A DNA stretch of 32,153 nucleotides from Bradymonadales bacterium (GCA_007693605.1 REDG01000037.1:1-32153), one strand, 5' to 3'. Positions 3,652 through 31,708 are shown, numbered from the stretch's first letter. Program-made: numbers and translations. Notes: a model not told the origin generated them from the sequence alone.

Positions 3652-5546
3652 CGGCGACGCCTTTTGCTTCGGTGGCTTCGTCGGTCTCGTCTCGCCGATT
3701 TCTGGCGTTCAGGCTGCTTCTGCCGAGCTCCGCCCAAATGCCCAAGATATCGAAAATCGATCTGCTGCTTCATTCGGTTGACATCATACAGTTGAACCTC
3801 GATTTCGTCGCCTATCTCAAAGCGCAATCCGGCGTTTTTGCCCTCCAGCCACATCTCATAAGTGTCGAGCTGCCAGCGATCTCTGGGTAAGCTCCTCATG
3901 GGCACCAAGCCCTCTACCCCAATATCGGGCAATTCGACGAAAAAGCCGAAATCCTTGATCGAGACAATGCAGGCCTTAAACTCTTCTCCAATTCGCTCTT
4001 CCATATATCGGGCGGCCTTAAGGGCAAGCATTCGCCTTTCGGCTGACACGGCGCGCTGTTCCTTTTCAGAGCAATCGAGCGCCAGATCCTCCAGTTTTCT
4101 TTCTACACCGGCTAATTTCTGGGGTTTCCTTAAAAACAGGCTGTCTCGAAGCATCCGATGCACGATCAGGTCGGGGTACCGACGAATCGGGCTTGTAAAA
4201 TGAAGATAGGCCTTTGAGGCTAGACCAAAATGCTCCACCAAATGGGCCGAATAATGGGCCTGCTTCATCGATCGAAGAAGCAGGTACTGAAGCACCCGTT
4301 GGCGGGGGTGGTTTTCAAAAGCCTTCAAGCATTTCCTAAGAAAAGCTTGCGGATCTTTCAGTTCCCGTTTTTCGAAGTCAAAACCAAAGTGTTTGATGAC
4401 TTGAAAGAAGTGTTCCAGTTTTAAGGGGTCTGGTGCCTCGTGGACCCGAAAGAGAGTGGAAAGTTGAGCTTTCTTAAAAGCCTCGGCGACGGCCTCATTG
4501 GCCGTGATCATAAAGTGCTCAATCAGACGATGAGCATCGTTTCTCTCGATGCTCTTAATCTCTAAAACCTTGCCGTCAGCATCTGTTTTAACCTTTCGTT
4601 CTGAAAGGTCCAGGTCGAGCGCGCCCACTCGCTGTCTTTTTTTGCGCAAGCGCAGAGCCAGTTCTTGAGCGAGTTTTAGCATTGATTGAATCTCAGGCTC
4701 TATTTTTCGAGCGCTTTCATCCTGATCGAGAACCGCCTGCACTTGAGTGTAGGTGAGGCGGGCCTGACTCTTAATGCTCGACGAGTAAACTTCAGTCTCA
4801 AGAATTTCTCCTTGGGGGCCAAGTAGCAGTTCGGCCGTGAGACAAAACTTCTTCTCATTAGGTCGAAGACTGCACAAGTCGTTTGAGATTTTCTCCGGCA
4901 ACATCGGAATCACTTGGTCAGGAAAGTAAATGGATGTGCCGCGCAAGAGCGCCTCTTGATCAAGGGGATCTTTTTCGCGCACGAAGTAGCTGACATCCGC
5001 AATGCTCACCAACAGTCGAAAGTTAGTGTCTTCTTTCTTCACGAAAATGGCATCGTCAAAGTCTTTAGCATCTTCGCCGTCGATGGTTACAAAACTCAAG
5101 TTTTGTAAATCCTTGCGACCCTTAGAATCTTCAAGCTGAAGCCTCTTAGCGGCCGAAATTACTGATTCAGGAAACTCAGTGGGAAAGCCGTGACATTCTG
5201 CGACAAAGTCGAGTTCAAATTCCTTTGAGTCGGGTGACTCAAACTCTTCGATGATTCGAGCATCCCACCTCTTTCCTTTTTTTCGAAGCACTTCAATTCG
5301 CACAATTTTGTGCAAGTCTGAGCTTTGCTTTGCATAATTCTTCTGATCGATCAGAATGTTCTCAGTGACTTCCTTATTGAAAGGAATGAACTGGTAGTGA
5401 GAACGTCGTCGGGGATGGCGAGCAATCCAACCCAACAGAGTCACCAGATTTTTCTGGGTTTTTTTGCTCGACCTCGATGGAGTTTTTAATGTTGTATTGT
5501 TACTGGAGGTATTTAAATTTATGAAAACAGTTGTTCGCTTCTTCAT
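3648..5546 (-). CDS. rnr: Ribonuclease R (RNB domain + S1 + basic tail). True start uncertain, possibly GTG at 5444.
   Basis: TIDGEDAKDFDDA catalytic motif, HFTSPIRRYPDL, S1 domain (FGFFVEL...VEGLV) and Arg/Lys-rich tail. Overlaps the ubiB start by 4 bp. Confidence 0.93.
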   Translation of the reverse strand: MKKRTTVFINLNTSSNNTTLKTPSRSSKKTQKNLVTLLGWIARHPRRRSHYQFIPFNKEVTENILIDQKNYAKQSSDLHKIVRIEVLRKKGKRWDARIIEEFESPDSKEFELDFVAECHGFPTEFPESVISAAKRLQLEDSKGRKDLQNLSFVTIDGEDAKDFDDAIFVKKEDTNFRLLVSIADVSYFVREKDPLDQEALLRGTSIYFPDQVIPMLPEKISNDLCSLRPNEKKFCLTAELLLGPQGEILETEVYSSSIKSQARLTYTQVQAVLDQDESARKIEPEIQSMLKLAQELALRLRKKRQRVGALDLDLSERKVKTDADGKVLEIKSIERNDAHRLIEHFMITANEAVAEAFKKAQLSTLFRVHEAPDPLKLEHFFQVIKHFGFDFEKRELKDPQAFLRKCLKAFENHPRQRVLQYLLLRSMKQAHYSAHLVEHFGLASKAYLHFTSPIRRYPDLIVHRMLRDSLFLRKPQKLAGVERKLEDLALDCSEKEQRAVSAERRMLALKAARYMEERIGEEFKACIVSIKDFGFFVELPDIGVEGLVPMRSLPRDRWQLDTYEMWLEGKNAGLRFEIGDEIEVQLYDVNRMKQQIDFRYLGHLGGARQKQPERQKSARRDRRSHRSKRRRR

Positions 5547-6744
5547 ATCAACTACTGCTGGTGTAGCAGCTTTCGCAAGCTTCGCACTAGCAAATATGCA
5601 TCATCACGGTGAGTCCGCACATCACTTCTCAGGTGAAGTTCGTACTCGTCTTAATTTTACAAATAACGAGGCCTTGGTCAGTGAGGACCTACGGCATCAA
5701 TTCGAAAACCGAGCAAGGGTCAACCTTGACTTTATGCCCATGGATAGCTTGAAGCTCCGTATTGCTCCTCAGGCGACTCATATTTGGGGAACTCAGGACG
5801 GAGCAGGGGCAGATGTGGCGGCTCCAAATGCCTATCTCAAAGAGGCTTGGATGTCCTGGATGCCTTCACATATGCTGACAGCCTTCATTGGCCGACAAGA
5901 AATCAGCTACGGTGCAGGCCGGGTCATTGGTCGAAAAGACTGGAGCCAAGATGGACAGCATTTTGACTCAGCTCGTTTCCGAATCAATTACGATATGGGC
6001 TATACCGACATCTTCTGGGCCAAGCTCTTCGAGGGACAGAATGCAGCAGTGAGAACAAAAGATGCAGATCTTTTTGCTCTTTACACATCTCTTAATCTTG
6101 AAGATCAGATTGAGTTCGTCCGAACTTTAGATTTTCATGCGGCTTACTGGTATCAAAACGGTGACGGGGCTGCTGAAAATAAGAAGTTCTTCGGAGGTGC
6201 GAGAGCTGCAGGCGATATCGCGATGCTTTTCTACGACCTCGAGCTAATGGCTCAGTTTGGAAAGCTTGGTGGGGAGTCTGATACTGGCTTCGCTGGAGAG
6301 CTGCTTGTCGGAATGAACTTCATGGATCGTCATATGGCGGCCTTGAACTTCGCTTACGCCAATCAGCACTATGTTAACCTCTTGGGTGACTATCATCAGT
6401 TTCTTGGTGATTCTGACATCCTTGGTCGACAGAATGTTATGGCGATTGGCTTGAACACCAGCTTCGGCCTAACTGACGAGTTCAACTTTGATCTCGACGG
6501 CTACTATTTCCTGAAAGCTAAGAAAGAGGCAGATGTTTTTAATGCAGTTACCGGAGCTGCTGGCGGTACTGTTGCTCAGTCGGCTTTGGGAATGGAGGCA
6601 AATGCTCGTTTGGGATATCAGCCAAACGATATGCTTCGATTTGAGTTTGGCTACGCCCTCTTTGCGCCTGGCAAGGCTTTCAAAGATGCTGGTGATGACA
6701 AAACTGCACATCGTGGCTATCTTCAAGGAACCATGCAGTTCTAA
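5521..6744 (+). CDS. Outer-membrane beta-barrel porin, alginate-export-like family
   Basis: GGAGGT RBS before ATG 5521, signal peptide ending ALA, IGRQEISYGAGRVIG...W...GQHFD motif, alternating beta-strands and C-terminal Phe (YLQGTMQF). Confidence 0.8.
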   Translation: MKTVVRFFISTTAGVAAFASFALANMHHHGESAHHFSGEVRTRLNFTNNEALVSEDLRHQFENRARVNLDFMPMDSLKLRIAPQATHIWGTQDGAGADVAAPNAYLKEAWMSWMPSHMLTAFIGRQEISYGAGRVIGRKDWSQDGQHFDSARFRINYDMGYTDIFWAKLFEGQNAAVRTKDADLFALYTSLNLEDQIEFVRTLDFHAAYWYQNGDGAAENKKFFGGARAAGDIAMLFYDLELMAQFGKLGGESDTGFAGELLVGMNFMDRHMAALNFAYANQHYVNLLGDYHQFLGDSDILGRQNVMAIGLNTSFGLTDEFNFDLDGYYFLKAKKEADVFNAVTGAAGGTVAQSALGMEANARLGYQPNDMLRFEFGYALFAPGKAFKDAGDDKTAHRGYLQGTMQF

Positions 6745-6799
6745 GCGATTTAGAGTTTGAGTTTCCGGTCATTCGAAGGAATGTTGGAAGCGAAAGCTG

Positions 6800-6840
6800 A
6801 AAAAGGCCCCCCAGAGATAAACTGGGGGGCCTTTTTCTTT
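6800..6840 (+). terminator. Rho-independent terminator, potentially bidirectional
   Basis: AAAAAGGCCCCCCAG-7 nt loop-CTGGGGGGCCTTTTT followed by more T residues, downstream of the porin gene. Confidence 0.9.
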
Positions 6841-6921
6841 GGGGGTGACTGCATTGGCAGGGCTTCAGGCCTTGATTTTCCGCTGTCTGAGGATTATTTC
6901 TGTTTCAGGCTTCGTTCTGGT

Positions 6922-7336
6922 GAGCGCGGATGGGGGAATTAGGCCGAGCCCCTTAGAGGGCGAGCCAAAGAGACCAGTGGCGTCTAGCAATTCCGCTGGA
7001 GAGGAGTTGCGGGATGGAGTTAGAGTTTACCGAGATTCTTGTTTAGAGGGTTTCGGTTGTGAGCGCGGATGGGGGAATTAGGCCGAGCCCCTTAGAGGGC
7101 GAGCCAAAGAGACCAGTGGCGTCTAGCAATTCCGCTGGAGAGGAGTTGCGGGATGGAGTTAGAGTTTACCGAGATTCTTGTTTAGAGGGTTTCGGTTGTG
7201 AGCGCGGATGGGGGAATTAGGCCGAGCCCCTTAGAGGGCGAGCCAAAGAGACCAGTGGCGTCTAGCAATTCCGCTGGAGAGGAGTTGCGGGACGGAGTTA
7301 GAGTTTACCGAGATTCTTGTTTAGAGTTTCGATTGC
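6922..7336 (+). repeat. Tandem repeat of 3 units (139, 139, 137 bp) directly upstream of tRNA-Leu
   Basis: Units start at 6922, 7061 and 7200 with GAGCGCGGATGGGGGAATT. Units 1 and 2 look identical. Unit 3 has a T>C change at 7293, a 2 bp deletion and two substitutions in its tail. Confidence 0.97.
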
Positions 7337-7338
7337 GA

Positions 7339-7420
7339 GCGCGGATGGCGGAATTGGTAGACGCACCAGCTTGAGGGGCTGGCGGGTAACACCATGAGAG
7401 TTCGAGTCTCTCTCCGCGCA
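7339..7420 (+). tRNA. tRNA-Leu(GAG), CCA not encoded
   Basis: Acceptor stem GCGCGGA/TCCGCGC + A, D-loop AATTGGTAGA, anticodon arm CCAGC-TTGAGGG-GCTGG, long variable arm, T-arm GAGAG-TTCGAGT-CTCTC. Confidence 0.96.
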
Positions 7421-7541
7421 GAGCTTCTGCTTTTTCCCTCATGCATCGTCAGACTTCGTTCACTCCTCAGTCGAGTATGAGGAATACACTCCTTCGTCGC
7501 TTACTCGTCTTCCTCGCCTGAGGAAAAAATCATCGCTCTGC
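7418..7541. repeat. 124 bp imperfect palindrome (type B) starting within the tRNA-Leu 3' end
   Basis: Ends GCAGAGC/GCTCTGC, inner arms TTTTTCCCTCA/TGAGGAAAAAA and AGAC/GTCT. The minus strand shows regular GA/GA mismatches. Confidence 0.75.
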
Positions 7542-7597
7542 TTCTGATTGAACTTCTTTTTCCCTTTACTGTGTACTTGCTGGGAGTGGCGATAGGG

Positions 7598-7680
7598 GGC
7601 TCTACACCATTAAAGCCACTTGGGGTCGGGAGACGAAAGTGCCAGACTAGATGCGGCGGCTCTACACCATTAAGTGGGGC
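7598..7680 (+). repeat. Short REP-like direct repeat GGCTCTACACCATTAA x2, 60 bp apart
   Basis: Copies at 7598-7613 and 7658-7673. Reverse-complement relatives lie at 31477-31526. Confidence 0.75.
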
Positions 7681-7683
7681 AGC

Positions 7684-8421
7684 TTATGATCGCCCCTGGG
7701 AGGTGTCTTCGGCTTCTTGGGTCTTTTGCTTCTGCGACTTTTCTTCTTTCACTCGATCGGCAAAGAATCTGTCGATGTCTTGATGATGCCCAATCACCAG
7801 AAGATCATTGCTTAGTTCAAGTCGACTGTCGGGACCTTCGACCAGTTTAAAGCGCTCCTCCTGATAAAAGCCGAGAACGGTAAGTCCGTGCTGCTTTGGC
7901 AACCGAAGCTCACTTAGACTGCGCCCCACCCAGTTGGGGTGGGGATGAATTCTTACAATGCTATAGTTTCTTGAGACCTCAAAGTCTTCAAGCGCACCGG
8001 GTCGTGCAATCAAATTGGCCCAATGCTTTCCCATTTCCTTCTCAATAAACATGACCTCGTGAGCCCCAATTCGATTTAAAATCTGTGCTTCTGATTCTCC
8101 AGCGGCTCTTGCTAAAACCCTTGGAACCTTCATCTCTAAGAGCTTCAAGGTGACCATCACTGTTTCCTGAAAACTGTCGCCGATGCAAACCGCTGCCGCA
8201 TCCACTCGGTGTATGCCGTTTTGCTCAAGCGCTTCGGTGTCCTTTGAATCGAGGCAGACCGCATGATCAACAAAATCAGAAATTTCGTCGACTAGCCTCA
8301 GACTCTTATCGATCGCTAAAACTTGAATTCCAGCGGCGGTCAGCTCCTTGGCTAGTGAGGCCCCAAAGGTGCCCAGTCCAATCACCGCAATTTTCTGATG
8401 GATTCTGCTTTTAACCGACAT
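7684..8421 (-). CDS. ktrA: Potassium uptake RCK regulatory subunit KtrA/TrkA
   Basis: IAVIGLGTFG nucleotide-binding motif followed by a TrkA-C domain (WVGRSLSELRL). Confidence 0.93.
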   Translation of the reverse strand: MSVKSRIHQKIAVIGLGTFGASLAKELTAAGIQVLAIDKSLRLVDEISDFVDHAVCLDSKDTEALEQNGIHRVDAAAVCIGDSFQETVMVTLKLLEMKVPRVLARAAGESEAQILNRIGAHEVMFIEKEMGKHWANLIARPGALEDFEVSRNYSIVRIHPHPNWVGRSLSELRLPKQHGLTVLGFYQEERFKLVEGPDSRLELSNDLLVIGHHQDIDRFFADRVKEEKSQKQKTQEAEDTSQGRS

Positions 8422-10096
8422 AGAACTCTCCTTGTGCGTATCGATAATTTCGCCGTTTTCGTCTTATGATAAAGAAATAAATCGTCGTGAGAACACCAAT
8501 TCTTCCGATCATCATCAAGAGAATCACAATCAATTTACCCACCCGATCTAAATCACTGGTGATGCCCAAGCTCCACCCACAAACAGCCAAAGCAGAGAAT
8601 GTCTCAAACAGCAGCTCCATCGCCCCCAACGACTGAGTCAGATAAAGCCCGAGAAAGCCAAGAAAGCCTAGCACGGCAAAAAAGAAAACAATGCTTACTG
8701 CTTTGGTGAACAAAACGGCGGGAATGCGGCGGCCCGCAAAGCTCGCTTCCTGCTGCCCCCTCAAAAACGCCCAAATCGACAAGATAATCACGGCCAGGGT
8801 GCCGGTTTTAAGCCCTCCGGCCGTTGAAATGGGTGCCCCCCCAATCAGCATCATGCTCATCAGGCTCACCTGGCCGGGTAAGCTATAGGCCTCAATCGGC
8901 ATCGAATTGAAGCCAGTCGCACGCATGGCGCTTTGAATCAAGCTGTGGAGGCCAAGCGAGCCAAGGTTTTGGTGAAAGGGGTTTCCTAACTCCACCAAGA
9001 ACAAAAGAAGACAGCCTCCCAGCAAAAGGCCGCCAGCGATACAAAGCTCAAGTTTCGCATAAGCCGAGAGCTTTCGAAGTTTTGAGCGGTAGTCAAAATA
9101 CTTCACCAACTGAATGATGGTGGGCGCCCCTAAAGCCCCTAAACCGGCAATGAAGCCTAAAAGGATCAAGGGAAAAGGGGCGGCATTCAAGTAAAGCAGC
9201 CCCTGCGGAAGACTAGAGAGTCCGGCCGTGCAGATTGCCGAGACCACTTGAAACAAACTATGAAACAAAGCCACCAAAGGATCGTCAAACAAAACTCTCA
9301 TGCTCGGGTAGATCAGAATCACGCCAATCACTTCGACGACAAGCATAAACAGAGCTGTAAAAGCCGCGAACCTCTTCAGACTTCCTAAAAAGTAAAGCTT
9401 TTCTGTGTCGTCCTGTAAGACCTTGTCGTGAACGCCCAACTCCCTTCCGATGAACAGCAAAAGAATTCCGCTAAAGGTGATGATGCCGATTCCCCCGGCT
9501 TGAATGAAGACTAGAATGACAAAGAGACCAAAGAAACTGAAGTGGTCGGGAAGACTGACCGTCAGCAGGCCCGCACCAGATATGGCCGACACGCTTGTGA
9601 AGAGCGAGTCAAAGAGGCCCAACTCGATTCCTGGCTGAAGGCTAACGGGTAAGACAAGAAGCAGCGCACACAAAACAGCGGCCCCGGTGTAGACGCTCAC
9701 GATGAAGCGGGCGGGATGCGCCTGCAGGCGAGCGAGTAAGCGAACCCATTGGGCAGAACTTAGAGCCAAGACGGCGGCGTTTAGAATGACCCAAGCTTGT
9801 ACCAAGCTCAACCACTGAGCTGTCGCCCGTTGGCTAAGAATCTCTGGTTCTTGAAAAGATAGTCGCAAAATCAAAAGAAGATAAATGAAGCCCAGAGAAT
9901 AAAATCCCCAGCGAATCCACCGAAGGCTCGCATTCAAGGCCTTCCGAAGACAAACTCGTCCCAGCAAAAAGCTGAAGCCCGTCAGTGCCAACAAATGAAC
10001 CGCGGCCTCTCCCCAGTAAGGAGGAAGTAAAAACTGAATCACCCAGAACAGGAAAAAGAGCGGCCCAAGAACCTGAATTTTTGTTAGATTCGGCAC
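8411..10096 (-). CDS. ktrB: Potassium uptake membrane subunit KtrB/TrkH with extra N-terminal TM helices
   Basis: Four pore-loop motifs (SAISGAGL, SAICTAGL, MRATGF, SALAVCGWSLG), the intramembrane loop IGGAPISTAGGLK and MIGRIG. Confidence 0.92.
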   Translation of the reverse strand: MPNLTKIQVLGPLFFLFWVIQFLLPPYWGEAAVHLLALTGFSFLLGRVCLRKALNASLRWIRWGFYSLGFIYLLLILRLSFQEPEILSQRATAQWLSLVQAWVILNAAVLALSSAQWVRLLARLQAHPARFIVSVYTGAAVLCALLLVLPVSLQPGIELGLFDSLFTSVSAISGAGLLTVSLPDHFSFFGLFVILVFIQAGGIGIITFSGILLLFIGRELGVHDKVLQDDTEKLYFLGSLKRFAAFTALFMLVVEVIGVILIYPSMRVLFDDPLVALFHSLFQVVSAICTAGLSSLPQGLLYLNAAPFPLILLGFIAGLGALGAPTIIQLVKYFDYRSKLRKLSAYAKLELCIAGGLLLGGCLLLFLVELGNPFHQNLGSLGLHSLIQSAMRATGFNSMPIEAYSLPGQVSLMSMMLIGGAPISTAGGLKTGTLAVIILSIWAFLRGQQEASFAGRRIPAVLFTKAVSIVFFFAVLGFLGFLGLYLTQSLGAMELLFETFSALAVCGWSLGITSDLDRVGKLIVILLMMIGRIGVLTTIYFFIIRRKRRNYRYAQGEFYVG

Positions 10097-31462: not shown

Positions 31463-31476
31463 AGTTCAGTCTTATC

Positions 31477-31526
31477 TGGTGTAGAGCCGCCAGCCCCCAC
31501 TTAATGGTGTAGTGCCTGTAGAGCCC
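31477..31526 (-). repeat. Cluster of REP-like motif pieces downstream of tRNA-Ser
   Basis: TGGTGTAGAGCCGCC, CCCACTTAATGGTGTAG and TGTAGAGCCC are reverse complements of the 7598-7680 motif. Confidence 0.7.
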
Positions 31527-31638
31527 ATTTGGCGGAGGAGGTGAGATTCAATGTCAACCGGAGGTTGAAGGGGATAAGGACACGAGTTCGTGAGTTCGTT
31601 CGAGACGACGACGCCATTTGGCGGAGGAGGTGAGATTC
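31525..31638 (-). repeat. 25 bp direct duplication of the tRNA-Ser 3' end (89 bp period)
   Basis: CCATTTGGCGGAGGAGGTGAGATTC at 31525-31549 and 31614-31638. Confidence 0.92.
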
Positions 31639-31708
31639 GAACTCACGAAGGGGTTCCCCCCTTGCCGGTTTTCAAGACCGGTGCCTTCAACCACTCGGCC
31701 ACTCCTCC
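31619..31708 (-). tRNA. tRNA-Ser(TGA), CCA encoded
   Basis: Minus strand GGAGGAGTGGCCGAGTGGTTGAAGGCA-CCGGT-CTTGAAA-ACCGG-long variable arm-GTGAGTTCGAATCTCAC-CTCCTCC-GCCA. Confidence 0.97.

Follow-up and report, generated by a model that had tools for sequence, protein, structure and literature searches.

The 32,153-bp contig that we analysed in its entirety as the window (C11; REDG01000037.1) belongs to the genome of a Bradymonadales bacterium (GCA_007693605.1; 2.19 Mb, 79 contigs, 90% complete, 49% G+C) and carries, directly in front of a tRNA-Leu(GAG) gene, a tandem array whose units combine a sense copy of the 5' end of that tRNA with an antisense copy of its D-arm. Tandem Repeats Finder detected this single array in the window, at 6920-7355 (period 139, 3.2 copies, 97% matches), and the array runs into the intact plus-strand tRNA-Leu(GAG) gene at 7339-7420, which was identified by ARAGORN and by Rfam (tRNA score 53.7 bits). 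All three units lie on the plus strand. Unit 1 (6924-7062, 139 nt) opens with a sense copy of the tRNA start (6924-6940), continues with a hairpin (6942-6966), an A-rich spacer with a short sense piece, AGAC (6967-6979), and an antisense arm (6980-6996), and closes with a tail (6997-7062) that begins with a degenerate, sense-like D-arm copy. The corresponding parts of unit 2 (7063-7201) are the sense copy at 7063-7079, the hairpin at 7081-7105 and the antisense arm at 7119-7135, and those of unit 3 (7202-7338, 137 nt) are at 7202-7218, 7220-7244 and 7258-7274; the tail of unit 3 now acts as the leader of the tRNA. Between units 1 and 2 there is no difference in 139 bp (100% identity), both among the gapless repeat families and in BLAST, and unit 3, which is 2 nt shorter, has 97% BLAST identity to unit 2.

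The sense copies, starting at 6924, 7063 and 7202, match tRNA nucleotides 1-17 at 16 of 17 positions, and the GA that precedes each of them is also found at positions -2/-1 of the tRNA itself. A first-pass annotation of this DNA had described 139-bp units with such 16/17 sense fragments, and our analysis agrees with it, placing the starts two bases further on. Its three antisense D-arm copies were likewise recovered as inverted matches (94%, 16 of 17) to 7348-7364, that is to tRNA nucleotides 10-26, and folding predicted the hairpin that it had located within the 39-nt insert of each unit, in the form of a bulged GC hairpin with a 6-nt loop. This hairpin is followed by the A-rich sequence AAAGAGAC, then by the turn and the antisense arm, and each unit ends in a 66-nt tail. 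Nucleotides 1-17 of the tRNA gene constitute a fourth copy of the direct repeat, and nucleotides 10-26 are the counterpart of every antisense arm. According to BLAST the 139-bp unit is confined to this one locus in the genome. As set out below, the array is likely to represent three tandem copies from a family of roughly 100-nt elements that is confined to one family of Bdellovibrionota.

Sense and antisense tRNA copies at other tRNA genes

The flanks of all 32 tRNA genes of the genome were scanned for 13-mers of the respective gene with at most one mismatch. The upstream design was found at nine of the 32: both a sense 5' copy and an antisense D-arm copy passed the 13-mer threshold at six genes (Leu-GAG, Pro-TGG, Ile-GAT, Phe-GAA, Leu-CAG and Arg-TCT), and the other three (Arg-ACG, Asn-GTT and Ala-TGC) have the antisense copy together with a worn or gapped sense copy. 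An antisense 13-mer (at most one mismatch) of the first 36 nt of the tRNA occurred within 200 nt upstream of 8 of 29 tRNAs, compared with 0 of 29 in the reversed or complement-only controls. Furthermore, 13 tandem repeats in the genome score at least 100, and the seven with a period of at least 95 all abut tRNA genes. A similar architecture at other tRNAs, which the first-pass annotation had named as a check of its proposal, is thus clearly present both in this genome and in the family, so that a general system exists.

The units share a constant order of parts. A sense copy runs from tRNA nucleotide 1 to nucleotide 16-20, where it stops immediately ahead of the conserved D-loop GG. It is followed by a 5-7-bp GC hairpin closed by C-G (P2), a spacer rich in A or purines, a short stretch of the 3' strand of the D-stem in sense orientation (usually AGAGAGC), a turn of 3-7 nt, a reverse-complement copy of the D-arm that covers 11-25 nt within nucleotides 4-33, 11-66 nt of leader and finally the tRNA, and in every case examined the arms match the local tRNA. 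Among 25 tabulated units, P2 has a 3-nt loop in 17 and another loop in three (both Leu units and Asn), one is a mini form without P2, and four are mis-delimited, an outer array unit having been picked. The 3-nt loops read GAA, GGA, AAA or TGA, and other genera have the GNRA tetraloops GTAA and GAGA. Most P2 loops belong to the GNA triloop or GNRA tetraloop classes, and the loop is a very stable one. Sixteen units were folded, and for most of them the minimum-energy structure is a three-way junction composed of a helix between sense copy and antisense arm, P2, and a helix between the D-stem piece and the antisense arm. P2 is 100% paired in an alignment of 17 cores (A3), with five of six pairs changed on both sides, and 99.2% paired in an alignment of 43 distinct rows (A4), with six of six pairs so changed; these percentages lean high because the rows of A3 were picked by a filter requiring five complementary pairs and A4 was fitted to a model, and the compensatory changes are the informative part. 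The structure of P2 is thus under constraint. The direct repeat spans 16-63 nt and in many cases reaches into the leader, as at a tRNA-Met (63 nt, one mismatch) and a tRNA-Ile (54 identical nt); in 11 of 19 cases it is limited to the tRNA start plus 0-5 nt. Since the repeats include leader or trailer DNA, the copies derive from the gene and not from the mature tRNA. The mini form lies 11 nt before a tRNA-Arg(TCG) of a relative (locus L044, genome G005) and consists of a sense copy of nucleotides 2-16, a 4-nt turn and an antisense copy, with no GC hairpin.

A mirrored form of the element occurs behind tRNAs. In the window it lies at 31530-31618 on the plus strand, behind the minus-strand tRNA-Ser(TGA) gene (31619-31708), and, read towards the tRNA, comprises a copy of the reverse-complemented tRNA 3' end (31530-31549), a hairpin with a GGA triloop (31555-31567), a purine-rich spacer, a segment made up of a short copy, a turn and the complement of the T-arm (31581-31597), and then a copy of the trailer. 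The same mirrored layout was found at the tRNA-Ser(TGA) and the tRNA-Cys of a relative, and the mirrored form or its remnant is present at 3 of 13 tRNA-Ser(TGA) loci. The mirrored form keeps the grammar, the loop type and the purine-rich spacer, but on the other strand from that of the tRNA; polarity is thus a property of the element and not of the tRNA transcript.

The distribution of the element was determined by pattern and covariance model searches. A strict pattern of P2 plus turn matched 5 of 401 genomes of the phylum, four of them in the family; the fifth match, 263 nt upstream of a tRNA-Gly, has no hairpin and is chance-like, and the reversed control of this pattern gave four hits in four genomes. 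A tighter pattern, applied to one genome each of 185,579 species, returned nine loci, of which eight belong to members of the family, in genomes named Bacteriovoracaceae bacterium, Bdellovibrionota bacterium and Deltaproteobacteria bacterium CG11; the ninth, in Kiritimatiellae, has no tRNA nearby and was dismissed as a chance hit. The covariance model R1 was built from the 17 cores of A3, which stem from units at class I tRNAs (AGAGAGC...GCTCTA). At E<=0.01 it hit 13 of the 14 family genomes, with 0 to 19 matches per genome, the genome without a copy being 95% complete; at E<=1e-4 it hit 11 of the 13 other genomes of the family and gave no hit in 137 genomes that represent 24 further families of the phylum. 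The fetched loci contained 47 matches, of which 41 were examined after one duplicate locus, one truncated match and four weak ones (E>=0.005) had been dropped. Thirty-six of the 41 lie 21-247 nt upstream of a same-strand tRNA and contain sense and antisense sequence of that tRNA; four of the remaining five are at contig ends and one is a weak match without a tRNA. The host genes encode tRNA-Arg (three anticodons), Met, Ile, Pro (three anticodons), Asp, Val, His, Thr, Phe and Lys.

Comparison between genomes points to gain and loss of units. Of the first three genomes compared at tRNA-Phe, two have the element and one has an empty site, although the tRNA-Phe of this last genome has the same sequence as in one of the two that carry the element; an R1 hit adds a fourth genome, with a filled site. 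Some copies of the element have decayed sense parts. Mean identity of the hairpin plus spacer is 0.66 within the richest genome as against 0.52 between genomes, and near-identical non-tRNA cores stand at different tRNAs of one genome (Thr and Val; Arg-TCT, Met and Pro-GGG). Leu-type units are found in this genome alone among the 14 of the family. The unit at Leu-GAG and that at Leu-CAG have some sequence in common beyond the tRNA-derived parts, which suggests that the unit spread recently, and within this lineage, between two tRNAs whose D-arms are nearly alike. Turnover of the element is thus high, with units gained and lost between genomes.

As a rough rule, repeats that are linked to tRNA genes are found at the 3' side and as sense copies only. 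Arrays of that kind also exist in this genome, and they belong to a second, distinct family, located behind the genes of tRNA-Gly-GCC (143 bp x 3.2), Ser-GCT, Ser-GGA, Cys, Arg-TCT and Arg-ACG (loci L024, L027, L025, L028 and L029, at C46:16748-17208, C18:26851-27187, C18:1600-2300, C61:23500-24150 and C75:40800-41018, respectively). Its members share a core of about 100 nt with two stems, which show compensatory changes between variants, followed by a sense copy of the 3' part of the respective tRNA from the T-loop on, and they have no antisense arm.

Copy number, surroundings and folding of the tRNA-Leu(GAG) array

A single DNA run contains the locus, and in it the contig of the unit has a depth of 25.9 (bins up to 33.7), compared with 14.4 and 12-16 on the flanks. 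Since the depth of the unit exceeds that of the flanks, the unit is present in multiple copies, about two to three, a number that comes from read depth and short-read assembly. An assembly artefact of the short-read metagenome, with one true unit at the locus, would alter this copy number only, and we hold it to be highly improbable: units 1 and 2 are identical over a length beyond many assembler words and no read or contig of the DNA run spans the array, but the unit contig has about 1.8-2.3 times the flank depth, unit 3, the one adjoining the tRNA, departs from units 1-2 at several positions, so that at least two kinds of unit exist, and the assemblies contain six more arrays of this kind in the present genome and further ones in relatives. 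Two further loci of the genome bear on assembly. A single unit lies in the spacer of the rRNA operon between the 16S gene and tRNA-Ile (contig C28; L034:456-532), and it may in reality be tandem, its contig having a depth of 28.9 against 14.4 in the neighbouring spacer. Contig C49 begins (1-139; L130) within an array of units for an unassembled tRNA that starts GCGACCGTAGCTCAGCTG. Contig ends coincide with 4 of the 41 model hits, so that the arrays seem to break short-read assemblies at tRNA genes; the 90%-complete bin yielded no more than 32 tRNA genes.

The array is preceded by an Alginate_exp-type outer-membrane gene (5464-6744, Pfam) and its terminator, a perfect 16-bp hairpin with flanking A/T runs (6799-6837, plus strand, found as an inverted repeat), which bounds the tRNA locus on its left side. 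Farther upstream are genes for an RNB exoribonuclease and an ABC1 kinase, and trkA and trkH lie downstream on the opposite strand; a Pfam scan of six neighbouring open reading frames (ORFs) revealed no integrase and no mobile-element gene, one ORF being without a Pfam hit. A terminator-like hairpin with a T run (7418-7440, plus strand) overlaps the 3' end of the tRNA. In relatives the orthologous locus consists of the gene end, the terminator, about 75-90 nt and tRNA-Leu(GAG), with no unit. The 86 nt preceding unit 1 (6838-6923, plus strand; L0) are likely to be the ancestral promoter and leader: they hold TTGATT-17-TATTTC, and by eye the orthologs in another genus have TTGATT-18-TAGATA at the same place. 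A consensus promoter scan called no site before unit 1 or inside the array, and candidates noted by eye within the unit tails were weak and were dropped. Only the last ~27 nt of L0 loosely resemble the unit ends, and the alignment of L0 with the unit tail did not score above shuffles, so that this likeness was set aside. The old promoter probably now drives the whole array as a leader of about 440 nt of the pre-tRNA-Leu. A coding function of the array was rejected, because 139 is not a multiple of 3 and the ORFs at 6839-7081, 7059-7220 and 7198-7374 consequently change frame between units. In Rfam searches of 6000-8500 (E<=10) and of 12 other loci (E<=1), only tRNA (and 16S) passed the threshold, and the matches to leader and miRNA families were terminator look-alikes.

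Folded as RNA, 7255-7420 gives a cloverleaf-like tRNA in which the antisense arm (7259-7272) pairs with 7281-7294 over 13 bp, including two G-U pairs; this partner is the degenerate sense-like copy. In longer RNA stretches and in the DNA fold the last antisense arm pairs with the true D-arm over 17 bp, so that, according to these predictions, the array can interfere with folding of the tRNA. The idea of the first-pass annotation that the leader folds onto the D-arm therefore holds for the minimum-energy fold of the whole leader, whereas a local 13-bp hairpin can sequester the arm instead. No RNA run was listed as a holder of the locus. In two metatranscriptome runs from the same study, 0 and 2 reads fell on the locus and none on the rRNA spacer specific to the organism, the organism being absent at the depth read.

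Other repeated sequences were noted downstream of the tRNA. The trailer behind tRNA-Leu (7440-7530) contains a 23-nt imperfect inverted repeat (7464-7486 and 7502-7524), and trailers resembling CTTCGT...CACTCCTTCG also stand behind other tRNA arrays of the genome and behind the tRNA-Leu of a relative (L007). A short repeated element at 7584-7700, also found at 31463-31525, has two 19-nt direct repeats (7595-7613 and 7655-7673) and reaches a depth of up to 734 in the DNA run, against ~14 for the genome; a copy of it lies after tRNA-Gln on contig C78, directly before the sole Y1_Tnp (IS200/RAYT-like) ORF of the genome (C78:26470-27132).

Possible origin of the units

We favour, at roughly even chances, the view that the units are copies of a gene-less DNA mini-element that copies its target and rebuilds the tRNA gene, and that the arrays have grown by slippage. 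With the tRNA gene single-stranded, such an element would enter, or be assembled at, its first hairpin loop and would duplicate the gene end, whereby an intact tRNA gene is rebuilt and a displaced fragment is left behind. The antisense arm would serve as a target finder by base-pairing or would be the product of fold-back copying of the target; direct repeats and hairpins would then allow replication slippage, giving rise to arrays such as that at tRNA-Leu(GAG), and in the resulting leader transcript of ~440 nt the sense copies would mask the antisense arm. The proposal in the first-pass annotation that the array records the action of a tRNA-targeted hairpin-copying mechanism fits best with the gain and loss of units, the re-matching of the arms to each tRNA and the mirrored form.

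Several observations weigh against this mini-element. It comes with no worked mechanism that gives a direct and an inverted copy plus a foreign hairpin, and no enzyme was found for it: this genome lacks RVT_1, which occurs in 5 of 14 family genomes with no supporting pattern, and Y1_Tnp is present in 10 of 14 family genomes and absent from a 97%-complete genome with 4-6 elements, so that reverse transcriptase and Y1 transposase were both rejected. No insertion polymorphism was seen at the locus in the single DNA run. Pro-GGG, Arg-TCG, Met and Phe bear the element in four or five family genomes, a pattern that fits vertical inheritance over a long time. Between two genomes of one genus the core is conserved better than the leader, and the sense copy often still equals the tRNA although the leader beside it has diverged. 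The GNRA loops are typical of RNA. A weakness of the tests is the selection of rows behind the high P2 pairing percentages. Moreover, R1 gave no hit in 6900-7340 at E<=1, a miss that is expected for the Leu unit because the D-arm of a class II tRNA-Leu has no AGAGC/GCTCT core. The features of membership at the array are the sense copy upstream on the tRNA strand and the reverse complement of the D-arm, which in the family comes 40-60 nt after the sense copy, both present; the hairpin is in the position usual for the family but has a bulged stem and a 6-nt loop, compared with the 5-7-bp stem and GNA/GNRA loop of the family. The Leu unit thus appears to be a member by architecture and not by model.

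Read as RNA, the units might be a host cis-acting leader of the pre-tRNA, with a three-way junction that controls its folding, RNase processing or yield, the antisense arm trapping the D-arm and the sense copies releasing it. The covariation and the GNA/GNRA loops of the hairpin would be accounted for by such a leader, as would the three-way junction as minimum-energy fold of most units, the occurrence at the same tRNAs across genera, the better conservation of cores than of leaders in same-genus pairs, the alternation at the Leu locus between folds with the antisense arm paired to the D-arm and folds with the arm masked and the cloverleaf formed, and the promoter-like site before unit 1 only, from which the array would be transcribed as leader RNA. 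We nevertheless regard this explanation as unlikely, in view of the mirrored copies, whose loop type and purine-rich spacer are antisense to the tRNA transcript, the range of 0 to 19 copies per genome with a nearly complete family genome devoid of them, the orthologous tRNAs that do without the element, and the tandem amplification and decayed copies, which resemble repeat dynamics. Were it correct, this would be the first bacterial family of pre-tRNA leaders to have its specificity encoded by tRNA copies in both orientations, sense and antisense. An antitermination signal of the boxA/boxB type was also considered, on the strength of a likeness, seen by eye, of the antisense arm of class I units to boxA, and was rejected as the stretch in question is base-paired and is absent in the mirrored T-arm form.

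Replication itself could generate sense-antisense-sense duplications by serial template switching at the first hairpin of a tRNA gene, with quasi-palindrome correction keeping the arms matched and slippage producing the arrays, without mobility and without function. tRNA genes are rich in hairpins and highly transcribed, the Leu unit zigzags from a sense to an antisense to a degenerate sense copy, the turns are tight (3-4 nt), the direct repeats take in flanking DNA of variable length (16-63 nt), and the design is symmetric on both strands. Left unexplained by such a by-product are the foreign GC hairpin, whose position is constant in almost all copies and whose closing pairs and loop classes are conserved, together with its covariation, the near-identical non-tRNA cores at different tRNAs, and the restriction to one of 25 sampled families of the phylum, and we therefore judge it quite improbable.

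A bolder form of the mini-element proposal, which we put forward only tentatively and with some doubt, is that the units represent a new class of gene-less, guide-bearing mobile DNA of roughly 100 nt, driven by a trans-acting enzyme of the host or of the element. The antisense arm would then find the D-loop on one strand or the T-loop on the other, the gene end would be copied and the tRNA rebuilt, and on moving the arms would be rewritten to the new target.

Relation to known systems and implications

The design was not described in the full-text literature in a thin search, and the nearest known systems differ from it in their defining features. In E. coli tyrT (the rtT region) tandem repeats lie distal to the tRNA gene, on its 3' side, with a sense copy only. 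The array described here resembles them in having units of roughly 100-180 bp beside a tRNA gene, each starting with a copy of a tRNA end, in about 3.1-3.2 copies; it differs in being located 5', in copying the 5' end, in adding the antisense D-arm and a capped hairpin, and in the occurrence of the design at more than 15 tRNA species in 13 genomes. A repeat of the tyrT type, or RtT RNA, was rejected on account of the 5' position and the antisense arm, only tRNA having reached the Rfam threshold. Integrase-borne islands and prophages reportedly fall into sublocation classes according to their att sites in tRNA genes (Williams, 2002). The fragments at such sites correspond to the 3' part of the tRNA (anticodon loop, T-loop or 3' end), and the elements are kilobases long, encode an integrase and use one tRNA. 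Common to these remnants and to our units are the rebuilt target gene and the partial end copy left as a direct repeat, whereas here the 5' part up to the D-loop is copied, the element has about 100 nt and its arms are re-matched to many tRNAs; given the 5' fragment and the neighbours found (Alginate_exp porin, TrkA, TrkH, RNB, ABC1 and the ORF without a Pfam hit), an att-site remnant was rejected.

Small palindromic repeats such as REP/RAYT and the Rickettsia palindromic elements are gene-less hairpins that are served by a dedicated single-strand enzyme and have one fixed sequence wherever they are found. The NTS/SRM hairpins of Ssn nucleases are a further case of gene-less hairpin repeats and serve as an analogy only (PMC11893778). 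These three groups share with our element the many copies, the lineage-restricted expansion and a likely action on single-stranded DNA, and they differ in that here two thirds of a copy derive from the neighbouring gene and every copy examined stands at a tRNA end. A repeat of the REP/RAYT or Ssn/NTS type, with one sequence dispersed over the genome and flanking the gene of its nuclease or transposase, was therefore rejected: the 139-bp unit is at one locus, the arms are tRNA-specific and the association with Y1_Tnp is not clean, GIY-YIG nucleases not having been searched for. Miniature inverted-repeat transposable elements with fixed terminal inverted repeats were rejected as well, since the arms change with the tRNA.

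Guides are carried by group II introns (EBS-IBS), by IS110 in its bridge RNA and by IS200/IS605 elements, all of which encode their own enzyme and have guides of 4-14 nt. Like them, the units contain an internal stretch complementary to the target, the antisense arm (nucleotides 8-28) spanning the break of the sense copy (nucleotides 17-19); unlike them, they have no ORF, the arm is 11-25 nt long and RVT_1 is absent from the genome. T-boxes precede genes for aminoacyl-tRNA synthetases or amino-acid genes, pair with the anticodon and the acceptor end of a tRNA and have a conserved core. They too are structured leaders whose specificity comes from complementarity to one tRNA, but here the partner is the D-arm of the adjoining gene and the downstream gene is the tRNA itself; a T-box riboswitch was rejected with no Rfam hit at E<=10. 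A satellite with a hammerhead-type ribozyme was rejected as no ribozyme family was hit in the Rfam searches at E<=10 or E<=1 and no CUGANGA core was seen by eye. By their defining features, none of these nearest known systems includes the array.

If the element is mobile, it would represent a transposition-like process that needs no fixed ends, copies its target both ways and regenerates an essential gene, and its targeting by a complementary arm of ~20 nt would be of interest as a natural programmable system. The searchable model R1, together with about 70 instances in 13 genomes, provides a resource for follow-up. For the lineage itself, our data identify the ends of tRNA genes as a systematic site for a structured, self-matching element.

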